Assembly (NCBI GenBank): GCA_002633005.1
Contig: NMRA01000001.1
Location: 23,527 to 87,526, forward strand
DNA: 64,000 nt
Direction: 5' to 3'
Source: Phoronis australis
Lineage: Eukaryota > Animalia > Phoronida
Part shown: one piece after another, positions 23,045 through 51,800 of the stretch
Position numbering within the stretch: the first letter of the stretch is position 1
How the letters are laid out: every line of letters starts with the position of its first letter
Notes under the pieces: model-generated
What the model was told of the DNA's origin: nothing
The model's input: only the letters and a program-made list of their open reading frames with translations
Databases searched by the model: none
Program-made: the position numbers and the translations under genes

Positions 23045-23362
23045 GTTGATCACTGAATGAAGAAATTAGGTCAAATTGCGAAAATAGGTCAATTTACAGG
23101 TGACTGCAGGNGGAACTGAACAAGGGACTGCTCGAAGAAAAAGCTTCATTATGGAAATATTTGTTTAAGTTGGAAGGAATAAATACATCGGCGACCCCCT
23201 AAGCTGTCGACCCTCTAGCTATGCGCAAACCGCATTTATAACAAGCTTTGACTTTGACGTATTATAGTCAGTGCGAGACATAATTCAACAAAAAGCGTCT
23301 GGCGTATTATACTATTATGCGCCTATAGGCTGAGCTCCACAGTCTCTATTGGCGGTGTCAGT

Positions 23363-23566
23363 CAAGGCTTGGAATTTTCCCCGGAAACATGGATTTCCGC
23401 TTTTTTCAAATGTTCTGTCCGCGCATTTTATTATATTTCTGTGTAAAAAAAAAATCGGATTTGATATAAAATTTCCGCGGCAAATTCCTTTCTTACCGCA
23501 GCGTTGCTGACGACGTTCACCTCGAAAAGCGGAAGTTGCTCTTTATGCTTCAGAGGAACGTAAATT
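23363..23566. mobile_element. Truncated copy of the MITE at 24952-25438
   Basis: About 200 bp closely matching 24952-25152. Confidence 0.8.
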
Positions 23567-23833: not shown

Positions 23834-26800
23834 GAAGCCTGTGGCCTCTTCCATCTTCTTACAAGACAATGACCGAGAGAAGTCAATTGGATGAGCTGAA
23901 TTTTCAGTTCACCACCAATGTGCCTGACTGCGATGTGTTACAAGATGCATTCAAGCGCTATTACAAGTACATTTTCTACGGCCCCACAATTACAAAGTCC
24001 AACTATGCTGATCCAACAATTCAACAGAAGTTAGTTGGCAACGCCAACGGTTACTTGACATCAGTTTCTGTAAAAGTGACCGGGGGTTGTAAGAATGGTG
24101 ATTTGCCGTCATTGGAGTCTGATGAAAGTTGTGAGTATAGGACTGGTTTCAAGTTTGCCTTTGAAACAGAAAATTTGATGCCATTTATCTTTTCCTTAAA
24201 TTTTAAAAGCGAACATATGTTGTTGGCAAAGTCTGCCATACCTTTTGCCTACCCTAAGATTTATATGTTTCCAATTCTTGTGGTGATGGAAACTGGAAAA
24301 TTTCAAGTACTGCTGACCAGCAGAATTTGCATGTTATTGCCAAATGATTATGACAGTTTGGGTGAGTTTAAGAGTTCTGAAAACCGGTAAAATTTCACTA
24401 ACATGGCAGATGGATGATATTTTGTTTTCTCGTTTTGTTATTACACGATACGTAGCACCATATCAATGCTTTATCAATGTTTTATTTGATATATATTATC
24501 TTTTAGACAAAGTTGGTAAGATTTTATTGTACATTCCCAGTCACCGTAATGACTTTGGCAGAAAATTGACAATGCCTTTTTTCCTTTCTGTTGAAGACTC
24601 TCTCGTTGTTAGCCCCAGTGGTGCCATGTTGACAGCCCCTGCTGCTTGGGGTGCCCTCCGAGGCATAGAAACATTCAGTCAACTTGTCTATCGCCAAGGT
24701 GGCTCAGTAAGTGACACGAAGCGTTGTATATTTTTGCCTCATTAGTGTCTGCTTCATGTAGATATTAATGTTTAAGTCTGCCTTCAACCTCTGCATGATT
24801 GTATTTTGGTTGCAGTAATATGTAATATGTTTTGAGCCTCATTCTGAATGCCCCAATATCGTATATTGTCGAATGTAAAGAGCGATTTATGCTTATTCCT
24901 ATACATCACAGCGATAATTCTTATGATGGTGTTCTATTAGGTCCCCTAAATCAAGGCTTGGAATTTTCCGCGGAAACGCGGATTTCCGCTTTTTTCAAAT
25001 GTTCTGTCCGCGTATTTTATTATATTTCCGCGTAAAAAAATCGGATTTGATATAAAATTTCTGCGGCAAATTCCTTTCTTACCGCTGCGTTGCTGACGAC
25101 TTTCACCTCGAAAAACGGAAGTTGCTCTTTATGTTTCGGAGGAACGTAAATTGTCAACATTGCCGGGGCATCTGGGATAGCGTGGTGGATTTTTCAATGG
25201 CGTCTTGTGTGATCATTGTAAAACCGCGGTGACAAATACTACGACTCTGCAGCCAAAAATGTGTGGAGGTGGGAGTGGACGGACGAGCCAAAAAGACGCA
25301 GACACACGCTTCTGGAGGTGGTCCTCCCGATTTTTGTCGGCAAAAGGTCAACATCCCCTATTTCGAGGGCCGGGAAGCGCGCATGTTTTGCACCGTAAAA
25401 GTTTCCGCATTTTTCGTCAATGGTCATTCCAAGCCCTGCTAAATTCAGCACAACTTCTTAATGTCTTTTGTCCTGTATTTTGTGTTCTCATGGTGATGCA
25501 ATAGACTCCACAAGACTACTTCACACATCAGGTGGCAAGCCTTTGTGTGAGTGATTACGTCACATTTTTTAATGTTCCTCAAGTATAACAGAACACTAGA
25601 GCACCTGCCACTGTAAAATAGGTCTCAAAATTCTCGTTACAAGGACGAGAACTGGTGTTTGGGTTTGCAAAGAATTGGGAGTTCGTAATTGCTTGAGACC
25701 ACATCTACAAATAAAATGCCACTCTGTGACAAGTCATGTGGTCTCTAGCAATAACGAGCTGTCTGTTCCATCCAAGCTCAGAACTCATGTTATTTTGACT
25801 CAGGATTTTGGATTAAGTGGATGGTGATTAGTATATGAAATCATCAAGTTCAACGACCCTGTCTGCGACGGGTTACAACAGGTCGTCTTCTGCATACCTA
25901 AGAATCTTGATCCTTTCCGTAATTGCATTGATTTCAACAGTTTGAATAGAGACAACCTGTGCGTTTATTGACAAGGTCATATTTTAGATCAGCAGGCCAT
26001 AGAAATCTTGATTTTCCACGATTTCATTCATGGAAAAATATGTTTCTGCAAAGTTATTCCATTCTTATTCATTTTGGAAACTAACAAATCCGTTTAACAA
26101 TTGCAAAGTGGTAAATGAAGTAAAAATGACAGGAAATTGTCTTTTTCCTTTTCTTTTTTCCACAGAAATTATGCCACAGCTGCATTCAGTGCCGATAACT
26201 GGTTGCACTTCATGTTTATTGTTTCTCAAAATCGAAACAAGAACAGCTGCACCACATTGAGAAAGAATCAACAACTACTTGAGCGCACCCGCTGAAAAAT
26301 TAATACACTTTTACGTAATACACTTCTTCTTACGGATGTCAGGGACTAAATACAGCACTCGGCATATTTTGTCATGGGTTTAAATATCTTGAGTCCATCA
26401 AGAGAGCGAAAAAATGATTACAATTGTCTTGATCCAGTAGGCAACTCTGAGCTAAATTTTTGTAATTGCATTTCATCTACTGAACAGGCTTGTGGTTTTC
26501 TCTGGTCTATTGACAGCTTTCTGGACCAGCTATATTGGTTACTTGGGAGGATTATCGGGACAAAAGTACATTATGTAATTCTAATGAGTCTTAAAATCTC
26601 TGAATAGTCTAATTTGTTACGTCTGCTATGTATAAAAAGTGGGAGTGCTGTCATTGTATGTCTTATGTATTAAATTGTGAGTGTTTCATTTTGTAGTATT
26701 ATGTTAACTCAACTACTGTCTCAGACGTTCCTCGCTTCAAACACCGAGGACTCCTGTTGGACACTTCTCGACACTTCATCTCAGTTGAGATTCTCAAGCA

Positions 26801-29800
26801 AAACTTGGTAGGAAACTCTCTTTAAATTAGAGGACCAAATAATACTTGCAGGCAGTAGTTAAGCTGAAACAGAACTGTTTCTTTGTTACTGTCTGACTAC
26901 ACTCACTCTGAATGGGGACCAGTGTTTAAAGGTGGCTGGGGTGGTACCTTTTGAAGGTATTTTGAACCTTTTTTGTTGGTTTAAGATAGCAAAATTAATA
27001 AATCTTCAAGCAGGAAGTATGATGATGTGAACGAGTCGTACAGGGCAAATACTTTGTCTCAGCAGATAAAGTACAGTTTTAGTAATAAATTCCTTGCCTG
27101 TGTCTTGCATCATTGCTCAGACTAGTCAAATGAGAAATTGTAACCTGCCGGCCATTGACCGCGGCAGGGATTGTTTTAGAAAAACATGGGTATCGTTCAA
27201 TGGAGCCTAAGGTCGTGTTTGGAAGAGCTGTGGCGTTTTAATTTGACCAAACACAAGTCCATTGTAAGTTTGTTTCTGTATTTTTACAGACCCACCGTGT
27301 CATTAGCTCTGCTTGTTTGATCAATAACATTTGTTATGATCAGCTGTTCTACGCTCTATTATGCCTGACAAAATAAAGGCAGGATTGCAATACAATCTTT
27401 AGTGTTCCCTGTGGTTAACTGGAATCAACCACAGTGCATCAGTGAAAATATTGAGTCACTAATGACCTAAGGCGGAAAGGAAAAGCATTAAAAACAAAAT
27501 AGATATCAATATTAGACTTTCACAATGCATAAGTTCTGCTTTTTAGTAATTTTAATTTTTGTGGGCACACAATTATATTTACGTGGGCACATTACTCTGC
27601 AGCCATCTCCATCTCCCCGCCATCCACTGCTGTATTGCTCTATGTCCCAATGTCACCATGGGTATTTGGTGGCACAGTTGTGTTTAGCAATAGACTTTCT
27701 ACTAGGAAATGTACTGAATGTTTGACTCATTCTAGGATGCCATGGCGATGAACAAGATGAACGTCTTCCACTGGCATATTGTCGACGATAACTCGTTTCC
27801 GTATGAGAGCAGAGTGTTCCCTGGTCTGAGCCAAAAGGTAAATAGTGGGTCTGTGTGGACAATTAACGTATGTTGCGAAAACTTTCATGCGTAATGTGCT
27901 TTGTTTCAATCTTATCACTAGTAGATATTAATTACTTCTTACTGGGTCTTTGCCTGTTTGAATAAACGATAACTGTTGGTTAGGCACTCAGATATCACAC
28001 TATTGAATCTTGTCGTAGTTGAACAGACTGCTGTAGTCAAGCCCATCCAGTCCTGCACCCCAATACGTATTTTCGTCTACCTCTTCTCCGTAATTCAACT
28101 TGAAGACTGAGGATACTTTGGTGAATGTGAAATTTTCTGCTCTGTACAGATTCAATGATCTCTGCAAAAACTGACAATAATTATTAATATCCCTTGCCCG
28201 AATTATAACCAATGAAATGAGCATTGAATGCGAGCATGTTGCCGAAGTCACAAGGATGCTATTCAGAAATCCAAGGAAGTATCGTAGCCGACAAGCGAGT
28301 GTGCTAGAGATTAAAGTAACACCTGGCTGGTCGGTGATATTTTCAGTTGAAAAGGTGACTGTGCAAGTTTTGGAGATCAAGTGACTTTGTTCTAAGTTGA
28401 TGTGCGACTGTCATTGGTGTGAAAGGTATTTAACATTATCTGGCTTTGCTGTTTTTCTAGGGAGCATTTGAGCCCTACACCCATGTCTACACTCAGTCTG
28501 ATGTGGCAGAAATCATCGAGTACGCTCGTATCCGCGGCATTCGAGTAGTCCCCGAATTTGACACACCTGGTCACAGTCAATCCTGGGGCAAAAGTCAGCC
28601 AGACCTGCTGACCAAGTGTTACTCTGGAACTAAACCATCGGGTAGCTATGGTCCAATAGACCCCACTGTGAATACAACGTACACCTTCTTGACCTCATTT
28701 TTAAAAGAGCTATTCCAAGTGTTCCCCGATAAGTACATCCATTTAGGAGGTGATGAGGTTTCCTTTAGTTGCTGGTAAGTATATGAGTAATCCGGGTCAC
28801 GGCACCAAAATGATTACGAAATGTCCTACTGGAAGAATCATCTTTGTGGTCGTACTCTCAAAACAATTTTATCAACAATTGTATCGGCAATGTTCCTTGA
28901 CTAGTTTCTATTGCCGTGCAATAGCACAATTCCTAAGTGGCGAGGTTGGCTCTAACATATGTTGGCATACCAAGAACTGCCAAACAACGAATCTTAGAAA
29001 TCGCTGACATCTTTTGAGTTTGCTCAAAATTAATTTGACAAAGAACAAATTTACAAGAATGGGAAGCAGCAGCTATCAAAAATATAAATGGTCGCTGTTA
29101 TTACAAGATGATGTCATGTTATTACAAGATGATGTCATGTTATTACAAGATGATGTCATATTATTACAGGATGATGTCATGTTTTCTTCAACTGAAAGAG
29201 CCCCATTGTATATCATGGAGAGAAAACTCTCATTAAATATCACCCTAGTACTGGTTGTGTTCTTACCCTTGTCTGGCTAACACAAGATGTTGCGTAGTGG
29301 AATGTGTAAATGATTTACGCAAAACTGCTCGAGGTCACATTATCTACTTTTAACCACTTACAGGAAAAGTAACCCCTTAATTACGGCCTTCATGAACAAG
29401 ATGGGTTATGGAACTGACTACTCCAAGCTGGAGGGATTCTACATCGCAAGGTGAGGCTAATGGTAGCGCTTCAAAGTAACACCTGAAAATGTCTTGGACA
29501 TGTGTGTTAGCAATTCACTGGCAATTGAGACAAATCTTGTATGGAGATTGAACAGACATTGTAATCAAATAGTTTTCTGTATATTGCTGCGTGTTCTGTC
29601 TAATTTTCTGCCTCTGTTTTCATTTTTGTTGTATTTAATGCATCTCGGTTTGCTTTTTGGTGTCTTAAAGGAAAAATGTGACTTGGGTATTTGTCACGGA
29701 AGTCATTTGATAATTTCAATAACCATTTTCTGACAGCGGCCACCTGATGATGTTGAGAGGCTGTACGACACCTTGAAGTAATTCTAAAAGTGGCATAAGT

Positions 29801-32800
29801 GCCTATATCAGCTCTACCATTCTCACCTACAACATATTTTTGAAGTAAATTTCACGGTGTTCTCTGTTTTGTGCTACTAACGTTTCAAGCTGTTTCTTTC
29901 TGAATGTTTATTTATTTTTAAAGGCTCGTTCTGTCTGTATTGGGCTGCTTTAAAAGGATAAAATATTTATTGAATAATTAAATTCAGCTTCTGTTATCCA
30001 TTGAATAACACTTTGTGAGACATAATAGTATTTGTTTAATAAGAAAAGTATGGTGCATGTTACTGTTATTGCATCGTTGGTATCCGCCTCAAAACTTTTA
30101 TGTAAATTTGCCTCGGCAAACATAAAAGTTTAATCATGACAGACATAGGCTTGGTATTTTTTTCTACTTTTCTGTTTCCGTGTTGCACATTCTGAAATTT
30201 CTACTTATGCTCCCTGAGTTCTTTTTATGAGAAATGGCAAAGGAATAACAATTTTCAATTTGTTAACTTATGGTTCGCTTTTTGAGTCACCATTTATTTC
30301 TTAGTACAAATTCGTGGATTGAATTACCACAAAATTAAATGATTACTCATGGCAGTTCTTGAGTTTCACTCTAGAAGGTTACCTAAATATAGGGACAACG
30401 CATATCTATGACATTGGTTGATGTGACAATAAATATCCCACAAATAAGTTCTCAATCAAACATCTTAATGACATACCTTCATGTTATTGGGCAAATCATG
30501 TATAATCAAGTGTTTGTCATACAAGTTTATCATTTGCTAGGTAATCGGCAGTCACTGGGCAGTGACACTAACCCCCGTTTGTGTTTTTCCTTGATCATTT
30601 CGTTCAAGGCTTCACAGGAGGTTCTTTCCCATAACATCGTAATGCCCCCAATTGAAAGAATCCTTCTTCATCACTGTTCGACAGATCGCCGAAGCTCATT
30701 TTTGTGACCGGCAATGTAGTTTTGTCTGTCAACAGTCCAGCATCTGATCTCCACTGTGCATCATTGTTGTCGCAGTTACGCTTATTACCCGGAGTGTCAC
30801 AGCCGTCAGTCATGCCGCAACCGCATTTCCCACTTCCTGGCCTGGCTCCGCCCCAGTAGTGCATCGGTGTGCCATCTCGGGAGTACCATGTGGCACTACC
30901 AGTGATGTGCCTGTCTACACACTCATATTTAATGTACTTTTCACAATTTGATGAAATTTCAATTAGTTTGACGATTTGAGGAATCGATGTGGTGTATTTA
31001 ACATCTCATGCTTCGGAATTCCCAGCATTCCTTCTTTGCTCAGAGTCGTGATGTACAATTGTGATTGGTTCCCCATAGTAATTTACCATATCGCACTCGA
31101 CTTCAAAGTGATTAACTCCTCCGGGGCCGTCAGGATCGATGATGTAAACACCATCTGTAGTAAATCCTGCATCGTACCAAGCCTTGCAACTGGACAGAAC
31201 TGGAAAAAGTCACAAGCCTAAGTGAAGTTTACTGAGTTTTGAGATTCAGAGATCTAAGTGCCAATTCCCATATTCCAAACTAGTATTATTCGTTTCCGGA
31301 GGTAGAAAAATGCGTTGTGCATTTGACTTATTTTGTGAAATCTAGGACCAATAGCACACTTCTGGGCTGGATGTAAAAGTGAAGAATGTTCAATCATGCC
31401 TTTAACTTGGCTTTATTGTTTTCAGAATGCCAAATTGCACAGTTATGTAAAAGTAACATTTACTTATTAGCCTGTGTGCATTGTACAACTGTGGACTGAG
31501 TGCATTGTACAACTGTGGACTGAGTGCCCTTCGGCTGCATTGTATTGTGGTTACACCGCAGACTATTTCAGTAAATTCAAAGTTCTTTGTGGTTCCATTT
31601 TTCATCAAGAATTCGCACACAGGCAAGATGTCATCCAAATGTTTCACTTTGCAAAATCTGGAGAATTTTTTAGTTGTCTTTACATCACACCCATTGGCCT
31701 TTAAATCGCAAACTGCAGATGACAATGAAATATTAATTGGGCTTTAAGGAAATGATGATGTTTGTTAAGTGAAAAAGTGCATCCAACAAGCTGTTATCGT
31801 CCGACTCTGTTCTTTAATATATTGTTCAGATTGACTTTACAACTTGTTAATGCAGTCTTGCAGCGATTCAGTTCTCCCAGGTACTTGTCTTTCTCTTGGT
31901 GAGAGATGTTGAGAGTGTGAACATTGACTACAAGGTTTCCCAACAAGCCATTCTTTGTCTTCTCTCAAACGTCCAATTTAGTCTTCAGACGTAGACTTTT
32001 TATGTCAAGTTGAGATTTAACATCAGAACATTTAGCGTGGTCATCCAGCATTGCGTTCAATCGGTTTTCTTTAACTAACCTTTCGGTTTCAAAATTGGAT
32101 AGCTTTGTTTCCAATTCTGCGTTTTCAGCTTTCAGTCGAATAGATTCAATCACTACCTTGCTCAGTGCATTCTGCAGTTGTACCCTGGTGTAATTAACAG
32201 GGGGGCGGTGAGGTTGGAGAAACAGCGTCTAATGCCAGCAACAACAGCAGCACTGTCCACGGAGCCATCATGATGATTTCTTTCAGAAACTAAACTTTGT
32301 TTCAAAAATGGGAGGTANTCCAATTTAGTCTTCAGACCTAGACTTTTTATGTCAAGTTGAGATTTAACATCAGAACATTTAGCGTGGTCATCCAGCATTG
32401 CGTTCAATCGGTTTTCTTTAACTAACCTTTCGGTTTCACAATTGGATAGCTTTGTTTCCAATTCTGCGTTTTCAGCTTTCAGTCGAATAGATTCAATCAC
32501 TACCTTGCTCAGTGCATTCTGCAGTTGTACCCTGGTGTAATTAACAGGGGGGGGGTGAGGTTGGAGAAACAGCGTCTAATGCCAGTAACAACAGCAGCAC
32601 TGTCCACGGAGCCATCATGATGATTTCTTTCAGAAACTAAACTTTATTTCAAAAATGGGAGGTATGCCAAACCATCCACCTTACATCATTTTGTATAAAG
32701 ACCAATGTCTAGTATATTATCAAATGGGTTATCAGATCACAGTTTTAGTGATAAAAAGGTGATTAGTAAATGTTCTTCAGTTTTGGATTGTCTCTAAAAT

Positions 32801-35800
32801 TTGAGTCACCAAAATTTAACCCAACCTTGAACTTTCTTTATTCCTTCAGATTGGCACATGGGGATTTTGGCGTTCTTCATATTTGTCAAATATCAGATGT
32901 AGCATTTTGAAACAAATTGGCATCTGAAAATAAATTTGGCAGTTTGTAAAATCGTAGAATAGAGCCGTCGACGCAACATTTTCAGGTGCCCCCTTAGAAG
33001 TGAATGGCCGTATAACGTTAATCATAATTCTTTGATTTGGAAGAGCCAGTGTAGCCCATTTATAAAATTTAGTACCTGGTCTGACCTTGAGCAAAGTAAT
33101 TAGTGATTTTTTTTCACTGTGAAACGGAAGAATTCCTACTTTACGTCTAGTACTATCCTGTGATCTCAAATCACAGAGTTTCTTATGCCAAAATATACAC
33201 CTTGTAAACAGACCAATGTCCACATGAAAAACAGTTATATCATGAAAAGTTTTGTGATGAGAATATGATTGACACGCAGCCTTGACATTGCAGACCGTGG
33301 TTTGGTATGTTGACCCCAGGGATACAGATACTATATATGTGTGTGTGTGTTTGATTTATCATCTACCATTTCGGAGACCACCTGATTCAATGCGCCCCTG
33401 TACTGGGAAAAACCACAACAAACTGAAAAGTAGCATTGAATCACGTGTTCTCAGGAAATGGGAACAGCGACATGGCAACTGGTCACATAGGATCGTATTA
33501 CCAGGGACTCTAGAGGATGACGAGGTACTTTGTATCTTTAGTTTAAACACATCATGTCTAACCCCATTCATTGTGAAAGGTTCTTTTCACGAACTCCAAT
33601 GTTTCCCTATGCCACCCACTGCAAAAACAAAGTAACTCCTGGTACAGCTAGGTGGCGCTACGATTTACTGGTTCCATGTGATCAACCCACAACCTTCCTT
33701 AAAGTGTCCCATTGTAACCACATTTTATGTGAAATTATTGCTTGGTAAATGAATACCAGCAATAGTAACTTACACGAGTAACATATTTTGGGAACCACTT
33801 CGGTGCCTGCTATTCATGGAAGAAAACTGGTTCTCAAAATTTGAGTCCCTTGGAAGTGACTTTCCCAAATACCAGTAATGCTTATGAAACAGTGGACTTC
33901 AATTCACGAGAGCGTAATCCTTACCAGCCTTTGTCCATCTTCTTATGTCACGTCTGTTCCTGGGATATTTTGGTCTCGGATTTTTCTCAATTCGAGTCTT
34001 CTGATATTTTAAAATTTGCCAAGAAATCCTGTGCATTAGGTATGCTGTATGGAAGAATCCTGTCTTGTTATGGACACGATACTTCTTCACAGCATATTGT
34101 GACTGAGGCTAAATTAACGAAAACAGGAAGTGAAGTCATCTGCTCAATGAAAGTGTTCGCTGAAGTATTGTTGGTGTAATAGTACATGTTGGTCCGTCCT
34201 TTAGTTCATTTGTGTTCCAATTAAGATTCAGTTAGAATGACCTAGTATGTATAACCGTATAGCAATTTGATGCGGTGAGATTTTGGAAACTAGCGATCCT
34301 CACTGCTGAATATTTCCTAATGTTTGATAATTAATAAATTGTTCTTAAACATGAGCATTATTTTCTATTTCAGATTGCTGGAGATCATCAAGTCCTTGTC
34401 TTCTGAGAAGGGTTATATCGTGTGGCAGGAAGTGGTCGATAATGGCGTAAAGGTAGGTATAGTTCAATCCTGTAAGTTAATGTTACTACTGCGTTTTCTT
34501 GACGATAATAATTTAAAGTCTTTTGAAGATGTCTGTAGGAATTTTTCGTAAGACTTTGTCTTTGGTTGCACGAAATTAGCTAATGGACACTGTGAAATGT
34601 CATGAAAAGCAGATTTTTTGCTCATGTGTAAAAAAATCTCACCCAATCTACTTAGAATGAATTTGTATACTAGAAGCTGTGCTCCTTACAGGTTTTAGTT
34701 TACAGTCTGTTATCAATTTTCTGTCATTTTTCTAAACCGTTAAAGAAAATTAGTGCACTTAATAGTGAGATTGACAGTTCAAATAAAAGGACAAAACTCC
34801 TTGTCAACTGAATCAAGAGATACTTGATTGTCCTCTCTATAAGGGCACCGTCTGTGCACCTGTAGCACAATGTATTGTAACAATAATGCAACAGTACCCA
34901 TAATGCAGTAATTCCCATAATTCAACGTCACCTATTCATCAGCACCCATACTGCAGCAATATCCACAACGTAAGTGACCTGTGGTTCAGAAACTTTTCTT
35001 GACTCATGCTGATGTGTCCTTGAGCAAGCAACTGATTCAGTTGTGTTTTCCAGTGATTTTACTTCACAGTTAATGGCTAGCAGTCATTTCTGGGCTATAA
35101 CATATACTGGGCTAGTGTTCCTCTCAGAGAGCTGAAAAAATCCTGACACTCGCACTGTAGGAACAAGAGTTTGTAACTGACAAAGTGAGCTAGATGGCTC
35201 ATGAAAAAATCCCCATGTTACTGCTTTCATGGTTCCACGACTCACACCCCTGTGCACAAGGAAAGAGCCTCAGTAGCAAAATATTCCAGGTTATGATGGT
35301 ACTTCAGTTTCCCATCATGCATTGTTACCCACAATTCTTAGGTTAAAAATGACACAGTGGTATCTGTGTGGAAGTACCATTGGGAGGGGCAGGAGCGACT
35401 TTACAAGGATGAACTGAGTAACGTCACTAGGCAAGGTTACCGGGTTGTTCTGTCCTCATGTTGGTATCTCAACGTGATTGATTACGGTGCCGATTGGCAG
35501 AAGTTTTATGGCTGCGAGCCCACAGGCTTCAATGGTGAGTTAACCAGTACACGCATGCCCCACTGATGCTTAGCGCCCTCTTTAGGCTAATTGTTTAACT
35601 GCTGGATCTTCTATGCAGTAGTCTCCTGCATGCAGTGGTTCCTGGTTTTGGCTGACACATGCAATCGGCTCTGGTAACAAAGATCTCTTCTAGATGATGG
35701 TCTCTCCAATCAAAACAAATAGCTTGATTACAAGAACATCTTCATTGCTTGCAGCATGTGCAATTAAATGTAAAAACCTGAAATCTTTTTTTTGAATTCC

Positions 35801-38800
35801 ATTCTCAAGGATTGAGAGGTCTGCCTGAAAGAGGGTGTTTCTGTCAACTTGGTGCTCGTTTCCGACTCAAGAGCACAGACTTTTCTTATGGGATGTCTGC
35901 AACCTCTGAAACAGATTAGCCACAGTAACGGCATTCTTTTGCAAATGAGTTGTTTGAAGTTGATGCAACTTACTGTCCAGTCTTGATATCAAAGTAAAGA
36001 TCAGTTCATGGTCAACACCGTGTCCAGCATCTGCAAGCTCATTGTCTTCTGTATGACAAACATCATCCTACCATGAGAGGGAGCACATGATTTTCACTGT
36101 TGTTTATATGATAGTATTAATATCCATCGGGTGCCTGACGTCTGTAGAATCCCACCGTCACATGACAGTCACGTATCTGTCACTCCTATAATGTGGCACT
36201 GGCATTTCTATGCCCCAAATTCCCACAGTAGGACGTTGTGTCCTGTCTTTATGTATTATGCATTGGGCGTTGTTGGAGCTAACAGTTGGCGGTCATCATT
36301 AACTGTAACTCTTAAACACACAGACACATGATTCTGGTATGAAAGGGTTAACCATGATCCTTCACAAATGTAAACTACAGGAGGCGCCACTGTCTTAAAC
36401 TGGCAATCATCCTCCCAGCAAAAGATAAACACAATGTAATGGAACACATGACTCTATACATGTCTGTTCAACTGAGTTTGTCCAATTTCTCCATTGTGAA
36501 CCACCATTACTTGTACTCTTCCTCAGGCCAAGGCGGACACAGTTGTGCATGTCTGGAAGGATGGTTCTAATTGGCCGAAGGAGATGTCCAAGGTAGTCAG
36601 CATGGGCTACCAGTCCATTCTGTCCTCGTGTTGGTACCTGAACTATATTGCCTATGGTAACGACTGGAGGCAGTACTACAACTGTGAGCCGTACAACTTT
36701 AACGGTGAGTCTGCTGCTGGAAATGGTCCCATGCTCTAGTCTGTCTCTTATCACACACTTCACAGCATTCATGTGAGAATTAATCAAATTTCAAGTACTG
36801 ACCACAGCAGTAAGTTCACAGAATACGGTTTGAGTTTCCATCTTTTCTTTTCTGTTACATTGCTTGGCTTCCCTGTGATTTTCAGGTTGGTGTTTACTCC
36901 AGCTTGCACATTGTGGTTGCTGCGTTAGCACTTTCTGACTCGTGTATTCATTGTGGTAGGGACTACAACTTAGATGACCAGACCTGTGAACACGGTCACG
37001 TTACAAATCGTCTACTTGTAATTCCCTTCTGTTTCTGTACTTCAGTAACTTGGTTAAGTAGCACAACTTTGTGTTGTGCTACCATTTGGTTGTTGTGCTT
37101 TTGGTTTTCTGCATCGGTCTCCTGTCTGTTGTCATGGATGCTGGTGCATTATGGGATGGGTGAAGGTGCATTATGGGATGGATGAAGGTTTATTATGGGT
37201 ACTGACAAAACAGGATTTGCTTGCCCCACCTGAAATATGACTTTTGGCAAACCAATGAATAAAATTTCTAACAAAATAACTGGTCAAATTTTCCTAACAT
37301 TTTTTTCAGTCCAATCCAGTGGTTCTGTGATACAATGGCAGCAACTTATAGTTTTCAAAAATTGAAAAAAACATAATCAAAGCTGTTTTGTTTGGTCAAA
37401 ACTTGTCGGAAATAAATTGTAAAAACAATCGCAACGAGAAAGGTTTTCTCTGAAATTCTGGCGGTGTTCCTATGATCAGATATTTGACTTTTTTAATCTG
37501 AAAACCACTGTCCTCATTGGCCTTTGAATTCACCCGTGGCACCGATCATCTCTGCCTAGGTGGATCAAGAGAATGTTGTGGTTGAGGCTTGGCTTGGCCA
37601 CGATGGTGGTTTCAAACAGGAACTTGCTAAGCTGACCAAGGCAGGCTACAAGACAATACTGTCAGCTTGTTGGTACCTTGACTACATCTCGTACGGCTCG
37701 GAGTGGTATAAATACTATGACTGTGAGCCGGGAGATTTTGACGGTGAGTGTGTCGGTACCTGCCAGACCCATCTGCCTTGCCCCTTCCCCCCTCTGCTTA
37801 CGTATTGCTTGCCTTTGTTGCTTGTCTGTCAAACTTTCCTCTGCTTTCATGTCTTAAACTTTTGCGTATCTACACCGTATGTGTTTTCTTTTGGGGTAAA
37901 TCGTAAAATTTCTTCACGTCGGATATACAGTATGGAGGATGAGTTTAATTTACCCAAATTTCTTCAAAAAAAGTACAGCTGATGCTGAAATCAAAACATT
38001 TGGAAATTTGGGATCCTTTTTTGTCGACGAAATTTGTTGTTTGATAACAAAAAAACACTTTGAGCTGTTGTTATTTTTCCCCAAATTGAAGACTTTTTAC
38101 TGAACTTAATGATCATTTTTGGATAGTGATAAACTACTTTGCAAGCTATTATGTCTAATTGTACTACTTAAGGTTTTGGGAATTTAAACTGTTTTTTAAT
38201 GACTGTTTATGTGTCACCATTAAATTACCATAGCGTTTTTGTATAACTTTTGTAAAAGTTTAACATGAGGCTGTCTAGCCTATTATTGTGTAGTTATTTT
38301 ATGTAATGAACTTACACTGCAAGTGGTAGTGATTTTGATAATGTGGATGGAGCGACACCTATTGGGATTTTGTCAAAATTTGGCCAGAATTGAACTGGAT
38401 TGTAGTCGATAACGAACTTATTTAATTGTGTAAATGTGGCTTTGTGCATTGAAATGCCAAGTTTCATCATTTTCCAGTTTGTCTTGAAAACAGCTACAAA
38501 TCGCCACCCAGTGTGTTTAAATCTCTTCCATTTTAATTTTCAGGTACAGAAGCACAAAAGAAATTAGTTGTTGGAGGTGAAGCTTGCATGTGGGGCGAAT
38601 ATGTCGATGGTACCAACGTTATTTCTCGCACCTGGTAAGCACTTTCGTTTCATTGAAGTTCATTGGCACATTTTACATTCAATAGCCATCCTAAACAAGA
38701 GTGGAAGGGTCGAATTTTTATTGGATGTTGCTCTTTTGTTGAGCACTCTTTGAAGCAAGCTGGTATCTATGAACAAGAACATTCAGCAGCATTTACTGAA

Positions 38801-39952
38801 TTTTGTTCTGTGCTTTTGAAAGGGACCTTAAACCCAGTGGACTTAATAATTAAATTTACTTAACTTTGGTTTTCATTCATGGATTCGTGGGACTCAAAAT
38901 CTTGGTAATTGACGAGTTGAAATTTCCAGTTACCTTAGTTTGAAAATGCCATAGTGTTTGATCCAAAGTTAGGTGATGAAATTAAGGTTGTCGAATAATT
39001 TTAACCATGTTGGATAAAATGATCCAATATTCCCCATTATTATGGTTGTGCGGAAGCCAAATTCATCGTCATAGTAGTCTTCCATCTTGACTGAGAATGA
39101 TGGGAAATGAACAGGAATGTTATTAACGTGGCCAAGTCATTTCCAGAATGTCCGTCACAAATATGTTGTGAACAAATGCTAATATCGTTTCACCTTTCAG
39201 GCCACGTGCCTCTGCTGTTGCGGAGAGATTGTGGAGTCCGCAGTCAGTCAAAGACTCGACAGCGGCGACGCCTAGGCTGAAGGAACAGCGTTGCCGAATG
39301 TTGAGGTACGTGAGCCGAACACTAAAATTAGGTGAAATATAATGGACATTTGTTCAAATAAATTATTTCTGGTGCTCGTTCTTATTGTGATCTTGGACAG
39401 TCACAACAATTATCTAATTGATAGATCTTGTTTTTGGGGGTTTGCTTTGCAGCAAACTTTCAGCCAGAAGGAACTCTCGATTTCTCCACAATGAGCCAAG
39501 TCTTGTACAGTTGAGTAGGTACCGGTTGGGGCTATGTTGTCATTCTATGCACGTGATCATCATTTAATGCATCGTCCAGCACGATGACTTGACCAGCACC
39601 TTCATTGTCTTGTATGGTCTTATTGTGTAATACGACTTCAATATGACACCACTTTTTTGTTATGTTTTACAACCAAAAGCTTGGAACAGTTATTGTGTTA
39701 ACTAGCACCAGGTGCGTAATCTGACTGCCGAGAATAAGAGACTATTAGCGTAAATGAAATCTTTGTTTTCTGCAGAACATGTCTTAAGAGATACTACTGT
39801 ATACAATGTTTTGAGTGGGTAACAGTTGAAAGCATGAGCTTTAATAGTACACATCACGTCTATTGCATTTGATTACAAGTTGTTCTCTTTTCAGGCGTGG
39901 ACTTCACGCTGAACCAATCAATGGACCAGGTTACTGTGATGTCGAAGTCTGA
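23834..39952 (+). CDS. HEXB: Lysosomal beta-hexosaminidase subunit (GH20, HEXA/HEXB family); first (signal peptide) exon not located
   Basis: Phase-consistent GT-AG exons: 23834-24130, 24597-24706, 26697-26807, 27736-27837, 28461-28774, 29364-29450, 34374-34452, one of [35342-35534 | 36527-36704 | 37560-37743], 38544-38634, 39201-39305, 39895-39952. Motifs [55 protein letters not shown], catalytic [36 protein letters not shown]. Probably co-orthologous to both HEXA and HEXB. Confidence 0.95.
24952..25438. mobile_element. Full-length MITE with TIRs and 6-bp TSD in a hexosaminidase intron
   Basis: Ends caaggcttggaat / attccaagccctg; flanked by direct CTAAAT (24946-24951, 25439-25444). Confidence 0.85.
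29097..29181. repeat. 21-bp tandem repeat x4
   Basis: gttattacaagatgatgtcat units. Confidence 0.9.
30604..32160 (-). pseudogene. Nested antisense disabled gene: coiled-coil region plus CASPR/Neurexin-IV-type fibrinogen-like domain
   Basis: Exon 30604-31199 (acceptor tttttccag) reads [101 protein letters not shown] with an in-frame TGA at 31006-31008. The upstream heptad-rich segment has a TGA at 31965-31967 and frameshifts. Confidence 0.75.
35342..35534 (+). CDS. HEXB: Hexosaminidase alternative exon copy A (193 nt, phase 0 to 1)
   Basis: ttcttag|[65 protein letters not shown]|gtgagt. Confidence 0.85.
36527..36704 (+). CDS. HEXB: Hexosaminidase alternative exon copy B (178 nt, phase 0 to 1)
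   Basis: cttcctcag|[60 protein letters not shown]|gtgagt. Confidence 0.9.
37560..37743 (+). CDS. HEXB: Hexosaminidase alternative exon copy C (184 nt, phase 0 to 1)
   Basis: ctgcctag|[62 protein letters not shown]|gtgagt. Confidence 0.88.
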
Positions 39953-41341
39953 TGCCATGGCAACATGGGATACACTATCAATGCCATCTATTGAAGAATT
40001 TCAAAAGTGACATTGATCTTTTCGCTACTTATTCTACCTTGAAAAATAAGTTCTATACTAAGTAATGTTTGTATTATTCAGAGGGGGTGATTTTCACTTA
40101 GTACTTAGCATTTGACAAAAAATACTCTGTATGTTTCGAGGCGTTTTGTATGAGCAGTCCTGGGTTGAGTTTCTTAGACACATGAATCTAGTCAAAGAAA
40201 CTAGTATGATCGTGACGATATTTTGTGAAGTTCTGCGTTTCTGCAGAGGCTTCATTCCAAAATAGAAGTATCAAACTAGCCTTTTATCTAAACTCTATGT
40301 TTAGTGGTTATAGTTTTCTGAATTCACCGAGTGTGTCAAAGTTTTAGTGTTGGTCCATATTTTGTACGGTAAATCACTCAAGGGATCTTGCGTTTTGAGA
40401 ACCAGTTTACTGCCTGGTATAACGAACTTCAAATCTGGCTGTCGTTGGTCGTACTTGTACCTTCAACACTTATCAGACGTTTTGCATCACACACGAGTAT
40501 GTTTATGTTCATGTGCCTTTATTCGATTTCGTTTTTCCAAAGAGGAACTCGCTTATCTGTTACCAACATTAGGCACATATGCTTAGTAATAACACCATTC
40601 TTGTATATGGGTTACAATACTACAATGTTACGTCCTGTTTTAACAGACTTGATGTTTACACTTATGAAGTCGACTGTTATGATTTCTGTGTTCATGTATA
40701 GTTTATTTGCGATACATTATCGGGTTTAAATCTAAATGGAATGGAATGAATTTTGTTAATTGTACTCGAGCATTTTCTTCCTTGTACCCACCATTGCAGT
40801 TTAAATCTGAATTTTTACCAGTAAGTTTTACGGAGCGCAAATTTGGCAAATCCAAAATGGCTACAAACACGTTCTCCCACAACACAACCATAGAAAACGA
40901 GATGCGTTTTAAGACTAGTTGAAACTGGCTGTGGAATAGCCCAAGGTAATAGTCATATTATTTGCCTGAACAGTTCTCATAGCTTTGTGAAAACACAACA
41001 TAATCTCTTTGAAACTGGAAACTTCTTTCAGCATAAAAAGTACATGGCTGCTTGTATTTTTTTATTTTACTTACATATTACATATTTCACCACACCACAA
41101 TTCCGTGTTTTTTCACAAAAGTTTAATTTCAGTCACAATCACAATCTACTAAAACTACACTGTACAAAAGTCATGAAGTGGCATTAATTATTCTTGAGTG
41201 TCCATATATGTTGAGGTACTTGGAACATCCGTCTTCCCGCACAGACCACAGTCACATAGAGGAAGTCCCAGGTGGCACCTGCTACCACCCATTGGGCTCT
41301 TACAATGGCCTAATAAACTAGGTATACCAGTGTTGCCAGAT

Positions 41342-51800
<10,459 letters not shown>

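Follow-up and report, generated by a model that had tools for sequence, protein, structure and literature searches.

What does a gene do with three tandem versions of one and the same active-site exon? The question is raised by a gene of the phoronid Phoronis australis, located in a 64,000-nucleotide stretch of contig NMRA01000001.1 (assembly GCA_002633005.1, positions 23,527 to 87,526 of the forward strand), hereafter the window, to which all coordinates refer. The gene encodes GH20b and GH20 domains (PF14845, E 6.9e-9; PF00728, E 3.5e-28; Pfam) and, as judged from its sequence, belongs to the HEXA/HEXB-type GH20 beta-hexosaminidases, both domains, the catalytic Asp-Glu pair and the pocket aromatics being present. 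Three homologous exons, A, B and C (Table 1), follow each other in tandem within it. We consider it probable that one of them is spliced into each message, yielding three subunits that share a catalytic core and are likely to differ in substrate preference.

Exon usage was assessed in three RNA sequencing runs chosen by species label (X2, X3 and X4, about 18-19% of each raw run being read) and in a set of contigs (X1). Between 34340 and 38680, a joint was listed only when supported by at least three reads from two starts per run. All eight rows of the resulting table fall into single-copy classes, i.e. flank-A, flank-B or flank-C, and no joint between A and B, A and C or B and C, nor any skipping all three copies, appeared at this threshold in X2-X4. 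Splicing of one copy per message is mutually exclusive, as the initial annotation had proposed: each copy is joined alone to the common flanks, the junctions from 34452 to A, B and C and from A, B and C to 38544 were all seen, and more than one copy is used. Junction totals, summed for B and C over two alleles, were 675 for B, 78 for C and 14 for A out of 767 (about 88%, about 10% and 1.8%, respectively), and the share of C ranged from 5.9% to 16.2% across runs. In two runs A was joined precisely on either side, and in the third only its upstream joint was seen; the contigs contain B and C, and A is absent from them. Features of homologous mutually exclusive exons (MXE) found here are tandem homologous exons, matching phases and single joins to both flanks. 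The counts for these junctions occupy two rows of the table because of a silent allele at 38545, the second base of the downstream exon.

The positions, lengths and phases first reported for the three exons were confirmed. Each has an AG acceptor, a G|GTGAGT donor and a length of 1 mod 3, and is open in frame 0 only. When the exons were joined by script from 23834 to the stop codon, single inclusion of A, B or C gave 514, 509 or 511 residues, whereas joining none, two or three copies led to a stop at 373-444 residues; any one copy restores the frame and other combinations break it. In a six-frame scan of the window, a profile of all exon versions matched at three places and no more (E 1.8e-30 to 2.4e-26), every other exon was found there once (tblastn) and the four introns around the cassette exons had no similarity to each other (blastn, word 7), which bears out the earlier description of unlike introns and single-copy neighbours. 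The copies are strongly diverged, with 22 of 65 alignment columns invariant, amino-acid identities of 33/59, 27/61 and 27/58, and nucleotide matches of only about 70% over 73-87 nt (A-B and B-C, blastn). Synonymous sites are saturated between copies (proportions of differing synonymous and nonsynonymous sites, pS 0.77-0.79 and pN 0.32-0.36), all frames are open, and the coding variants examined in RNA were silent (7/7, including two in A and two in B), which together indicate that the copies are old and under selection.

Exon B aligns to residues 418-471 of the human beta subunit (with the alpha chain also among the PDB matches), a segment that includes W424, Y450, D452-L453 and Y456; the alpha equivalents in the cassette are W392, the loop IPV396-398, Y421 and N423-R424. 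These residues had been mapped correctly at the outset, those of beta being placed by the range of the 3lmy match and the beta-chain alignments. In the structural model of Lingula isoform X1, taken as a stand-in (predicted local distance difference test score, pLDDT, 86.5), the exon corresponds to strand 408-411, helix 418-430, strand 434-437 and the following loop. On this model the cassette is predicted to encode barrel strands 6-7 and the loop bearing the specificity pair. The catalytic pair lies in a constitutive exon. According to the accessible parts of the papers cited, N423-R424 versus D452-L453 governs the cleavage of charged substrates (PMC3587417; PMC3445047), and Tyr456 of beta completes the alpha active site (PMC4449183). 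The equivalents of W424 and Y450 are invariant in A, B and C, and so is the interface tyrosine (beta Y456). At the specificity pair A has N-V, B has N-Y, the common invertebrate state, and C has D-Y; the alpha-type N-R pair (alpha 423-424) is found in none of the three, each of which lacks its arginine. Additionally, A has the longest loop after the first Trp and two internal N-x-T sequons (none in B and C), and C is net acidic (5 K/R versus 10 D/E), five charges more so than B.

The proposal that a specificity cassette is swapped by splicing therefore stands in part: the swap holds, and the alpha/beta switch (MUGS versus MUG) is not reproduced here since all three copies lack the alpha arginine. 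What the cassette would supply is strands 6-7 of the barrel together with two aromatics of the pocket, the pair that selects for charge, and the tyrosine by which one subunit completes the active site of its partner. As the specificity parts lie inside it, swapping would retune preference rather than chemistry, B keeping the usual pair, C offering an acidic version with D-Y, and A combining N-V with a longer loop.

As to the origin of exclusivity, each copy has a length of 1 mod 3, so that anything but single inclusion runs into an early stop that precedes later junctions. Frame incompatibility could then be the main source of exclusivity, with nonsense-mediated decay removing messages that contain no copy, two copies or all three; the decay of misspliced messages is given as a recognised contributor to exclusivity in the available part of PMC6071210. 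The copies are separated by introns of 992 nt and 855 nt, in which the AG-free zones span 50 nt and 80 nt, respectively; judged from sequence, such lengths would rather argue against simple steric blocking. A further candidate contribution comes from intronic elements. The repeat S is complementary to two upstream elements, U1 and U2; among 71 pairs of equal-sized chunks in the window, the one with the U1 region came out best, and the strength of the pair formed by the upstream and B-C introns was reached by 1 of 60 shuffles. With U1-S strong and U2-S suggestive, docking control is a lead only. U1-S pairing would loop out A and B and may help to pick C; S lies inside the cluster, before the last copy, and so cannot give exclusivity alone.

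The initial annotation had opposed this animal, which splices, to vertebrates, which duplicate the whole gene. That opposition is wrong, given that teleost hexb, carp hexa and many invertebrates swap the same exon. Among 23 species groups compared, mostly picked for their isoform names and represented by database isoforms, i.e. gene models, 15 swap the cassette exon with at least 99% identity elsewhere, a proportion that is not a frequency given this choice of groups. They comprise Lingula (three versions), three oysters, two Haliotis, Mercenaria, Littorina, Pecten, Bradybaena, two urchins and three Branchiostoma; three versions each, with 100% identity elsewhere, are found in Lingula, Magallana, Haliotis and Branchiostoma lanceolatum. 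The remaining eight of the 23, including all three arthropod groups and Rhinatrema, show no swap. The isoform pairs of Lottia, Arion and Pomacea proved to be paralogs, and in those of Penaeus, Dermacentor, Tachypleus, Rhinatrema, Mizuhopecten and Acipenser (X2 pair) the cassette exon is not swapped.

In teleost hexb, isoforms X1 and X2 are identical outside the exon (e.g. 491/491) and share 32/58 residues inside it, with N-R versus D-Y at the specificity pair; the two versions of carp hexa share 465/468 residues outside and 20/58 inside. Both copies lie within gene models in sturgeon, several teleosts, Mya, Magallana and Holothuria. The exon swap is widespread and database-annotated, apparently undiscussed, and Phoronis represents one case of it. 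Several peculiarities were encountered among these versions. Two-copy models of ray-finned fish hexb have the order D-Y then N-R, i.e. the human alpha/beta pair within one gene. In the carp hexa alternative the Trp before the pocket Tyr is replaced and the interface Tyr is absent. Loop insertions occur in urchin X1, amphioxus X1 and the Holothuria copies, and one contig-derived protein reads through two tandem Cys-type cassette copies split by a short intron.

In a tree of the exon (53 rows, 57 columns, 24 of 50 branches open), duplicates confined to a single lineage are seen in amphioxus (100/99), in urchins (96/90) and in oysters (100/93). Other copies are older and shared, joining Littorina with Haliotis (99/94) and sturgeon with the teleost D-Y copy (99/93). 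Holding A, B and C together was neither supported nor rejected (approximately unbiased test, p-AU 0.103). A grouping of A with Littorina, seen in a smaller exon tree, is gone in the 53-row tree, and an odd motif seemingly common to urchin X1 and the carp hexa alternative forms no clade. As a self-contained module that sits between conserved introns, the exon may be a hotspot of recurrent duplication, some copies being clearly lineage-specific. For the R424/L453 column, the share of comparisons showing a difference is 0.88 within 14 clusters and 0.22 among 9 single-version taxa, the largest copy-to-copy excess of 56 columns (column means 0.39 for clusters and 0.37 for single-version taxa).

These fish copies also bear on the ancestral state. 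The teleost D-Y copy scores 72.8-74.5 bits to human beta versus 51 to alpha, and the N-R copy 59.6-61.1 bits to beta versus 59.3-59.4 to alpha; with equal scores, the N-R copy is unsupported as a true alpha orthologue. An ancestral splice switch, by which one gene made charged- and neutral-substrate subunits, fish hexb retaining both and human HEXA and HEXB each having frozen one form, is not favoured by these scores, and we regard it as rather unlikely.

Several points weigh against the idea of three subunits with distinct preferences. The listing threshold leaves room for rare double inclusion, and A has only 14 junction reads where an intron depth of about 1 is background. The B:C ratio differs significantly between runs when downstream junctions are counted (p 5e-4) and not when upstream ones are (p 0.16), hence this heterogeneity is no demonstration of regulated choice. 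The key-position Arg is absent from A, B and C, and B and C both have Tyr there; functional differences among the copies may be subtle. The comparative evidence consists of gene models from 23 groups selected largely by isoform names, the 14 clusters are phylogenetically non-independent, and taxa counted as single-version may have unannotated copies. As for the intronic elements, U1 ranks only 4th against S in short windows, where a site at 30841 is among those ahead of it, C remains the minor form even though no pairing is stronger than U1-S, and the pair formed by the upstream and C-downstream introns also beat 60 of 60 shuffles, which calls for caution over pairing scores.

The copies could be functional and alter dimer partner choice, stability, glycosylation or targeting instead of substrate preference. 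The cassette carries the cross-dimer tyrosine and the loop matching alpha IPV396-398, and the sequons of A and the acidity of C would suit such roles; yet all three copies keep the interface tyrosine unchanged, and the most divergent column across clusters is the specificity position, which makes this alternative quite unlikely. It seems improbable, too, that only B, perhaps with C, is functional and that A is a fading duplicate included by splicing noise. The scarcity of A in junction reads, its absence from the X1 contigs and its branch in the exon tree, the longest of the window's three, would fit such decay. However, contigs drop rare forms, and A has kept its frame open, its acceptor and donor intact and each of the 22 shared residues in place despite synonymous sites saturated versus B and C; its two RNA variants are synonymous, and its joins are precise, on both sides in two runs and on the upstream side in the third. 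Finally, five single-N gaps in the window and a missing first exon might suggest separate mis-assembled paralogs, but this is refuted by reads in which the same upstream exon and the same downstream exon are joined to each of the three copies, with no N within 32319-46314 and the other exons single-copy.

We thus retain the swapping of a substrate-selecting exon as the most probable reading. The dimer isoenzymes initially envisaged, up to six, would need co-expression in one cell, and A makes up only 1.8% of junction reads. In this animal, splicing exchanges the loop by which the Tay-Sachs/Sandhoff enzyme family selects its substrates, and database isoforms indicate the same for molluscs, brachiopods, echinoderms and chordates. 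One of the subunits made by fish hexb would by nature carry the alpha N-R pair that was engineered into human beta (5bro; PMC3587417). The N-R/D-Y hexb is thereby of interest for fish models of GM2 disease and for the question of how alpha and beta came to be separate, and many natural cassettes on one scaffold render specificity rules directly testable.

Table 1. Exons of the Phoronis hexosaminidase gene and candidate intronic elements (read counts in the order X2/X3/X4)
Feature	Positions	Strand	Evidence
First exon found, N-terminal GH20b domain, constitutive	23834..24130	+	PF14845 E 6.9e-9; RNA joint to 24597
Constitutive exon	24597..24706	+	GT..AG RNA joints; frame
Constitutive exon, 111 nt	26697..26807	+	Frame; RNA joints
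Constitutive exon, 102 nt	27736..27837	+	Frame; RNA joints
Constitutive exon with catalytic Asp-Glu pair, common to all isoforms	28461..28774	+	PF00728 E 3.5e-28; translation; joints
Constitutive exon, 87 nt	29364..29450	+	Frame; RNA joints
Constitutive exon upstream of cluster, phase-0 donor	34374..34452	+	RNA joints to A, B, C
U1, candidate intronic element complementary to S	34891..34970	+	U1-S duplex -70.3 kcal/mol
Alternative exon A, 193 nt, 64 codons, pair N-V, rare	35342..35534	+	Junction reads upstream 1/3/3, downstream 0/2/5
U2, candidate weaker, wobble-rich complement of S repeat unit 1	36184..36212	+	Rank 2 of 7,996 windows; picked post hoc
Alternative exon B, 178 nt, 59 codons, pair N-Y, major form	36527..36704	+	Junction reads upstream 67/71/175, downstream 87/90/185; PDB HEXB matches E 1e-15
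S, three 22-nt repeats, candidate docking site complementary to U1 and U2	37127..37205	+	Repeat and duplex analysis
Alternative exon C, 184 nt, 61 codons, pair D-Y, minor form	37560..37743	+	Junction reads upstream 8/11/12, downstream 22/14/11; X1 contig
Constitutive exon downstream of cluster, 91 nt, phase-1 acceptor	38544..38634	+	RNA joints to A, B, C
Constitutive exon, 105 nt	39201..39305	+	Frame; RNA joints
Last exon, stop codon and 3' untranslated region; transcript end near 40722-40736	39895..40736	+	Joint to 39893; molecule ends

The exon sizes of 111, 102, 87, 91 and 105 nt match those of human HEXA/HEXB, and the cassette corresponds to human exon 11 (184 nt). The best protein matches, at about 60% identity (none above about 61%), came from Lineus, gastropods and Capitella, and a quick gene tree built without the cassette exon put the window gene beside Lineus (support 83, unstarred), a weak placement among spiralians. 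An earlier exon exists upstream of 23834, as 133, 143 and 343 RNA reads have loose ends before 23833; it was not found in the window with up to 3 mismatches allowed. As the first coding exon is not seen in the window, the signal peptide is not visible. This exon may fall in an assembly gap, one N lying at 23111.

Other features of the window were also recorded. Two copies of a dispersed repeat (23352-23566 and 24950-25440), which many RNA reads partly match, are probably a small mobile element. The 4.9-kb intron contains an open reading frame on the minus strand (30604-31005) with little RNA cover, which resembles a fragment of a contactin-associated-protein or fibrinogen-like domain. A 347-nt tandem duplicate (31972-32670, 98% identical) straddles an N at 32318 and is likely an assembly overlap. 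Exon pieces that resemble electron transfer flavoprotein alpha lie at 45949-50989 on the minus strand.

No paper on a mutually exclusive exon in GH20 hexosaminidases was found in a literature search whose scope excluded most subscription journals. The initial annotation knew of no described cluster of this kind; what was found in print is a row for a fish HEXB event in a supplement of PMC8933327. The available text of that paper names hexb as differentially spliced (Acanthochromis), and its Data S4 gives a HEXB MXE whose two exons, of 181 nt and 175 nt, are flanked by exons of 73 nt and 91 nt (false discovery rate 1.6e-3, delta percent spliced in (PSI) -0.136). HEXA and HEXB are absent from 10 supplements of the human MXE catalogue PMC5740500, and from the text and 6 supplements of PMC7954323, further supplements of which may list the event. 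The GH20 phylogeny of PMC2492878, in its accessible part, used the longest isoforms and called vertebrate genes universally 14-exon.

Human HEXA and HEXB (PDB 2gjx, 2gk1, 1nou, 1o7a; beta/alpha hybrid 5bro) have the same GH20b and GH20 domains and the same W424/Y450/D452-L453/Y456 segment as the window gene. In contrast, human has two genes, and the copies in the window carry N-V, N-Y or D-Y, never N-R, and a Cys pair where human has Pro. Teleost hexb swaps the same exon in the same mutually exclusive mode; it has two copies, N-R and D-Y like human alpha and beta, and the exon tree does not show that these are orthologous to any one of A, B and C. Lingula, Magallana, Haliotis and Branchiostoma lanceolatum resemble the window gene in having three versions, known from gene models, with several copies lineage-specific.

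Beyond this family, the tandem copies and complementary intronic elements recall the docking-site/selector clusters of Dscam1, 14-3-3zeta, Mhc and MRP1 (PMC6071210, available part); unlike in these clusters, the shared element S sits inside the cluster, before the last copy. The closest functional analogue appears to be coq-2a/coq-2e (PMC7434440, accessible part), where the choice between mutually exclusive exons goes along with a change in the substrate of the enzyme; by the paper's keywords, annelids and molluscs are among the invertebrates concerned. It concerns a different enzyme with two forms whose function was tested, whereas the window gene has three forms known from sequence and RNA. 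Mutually exclusive active-site exons are already a known kind, and the GH20 specificity-loop case is a new one.

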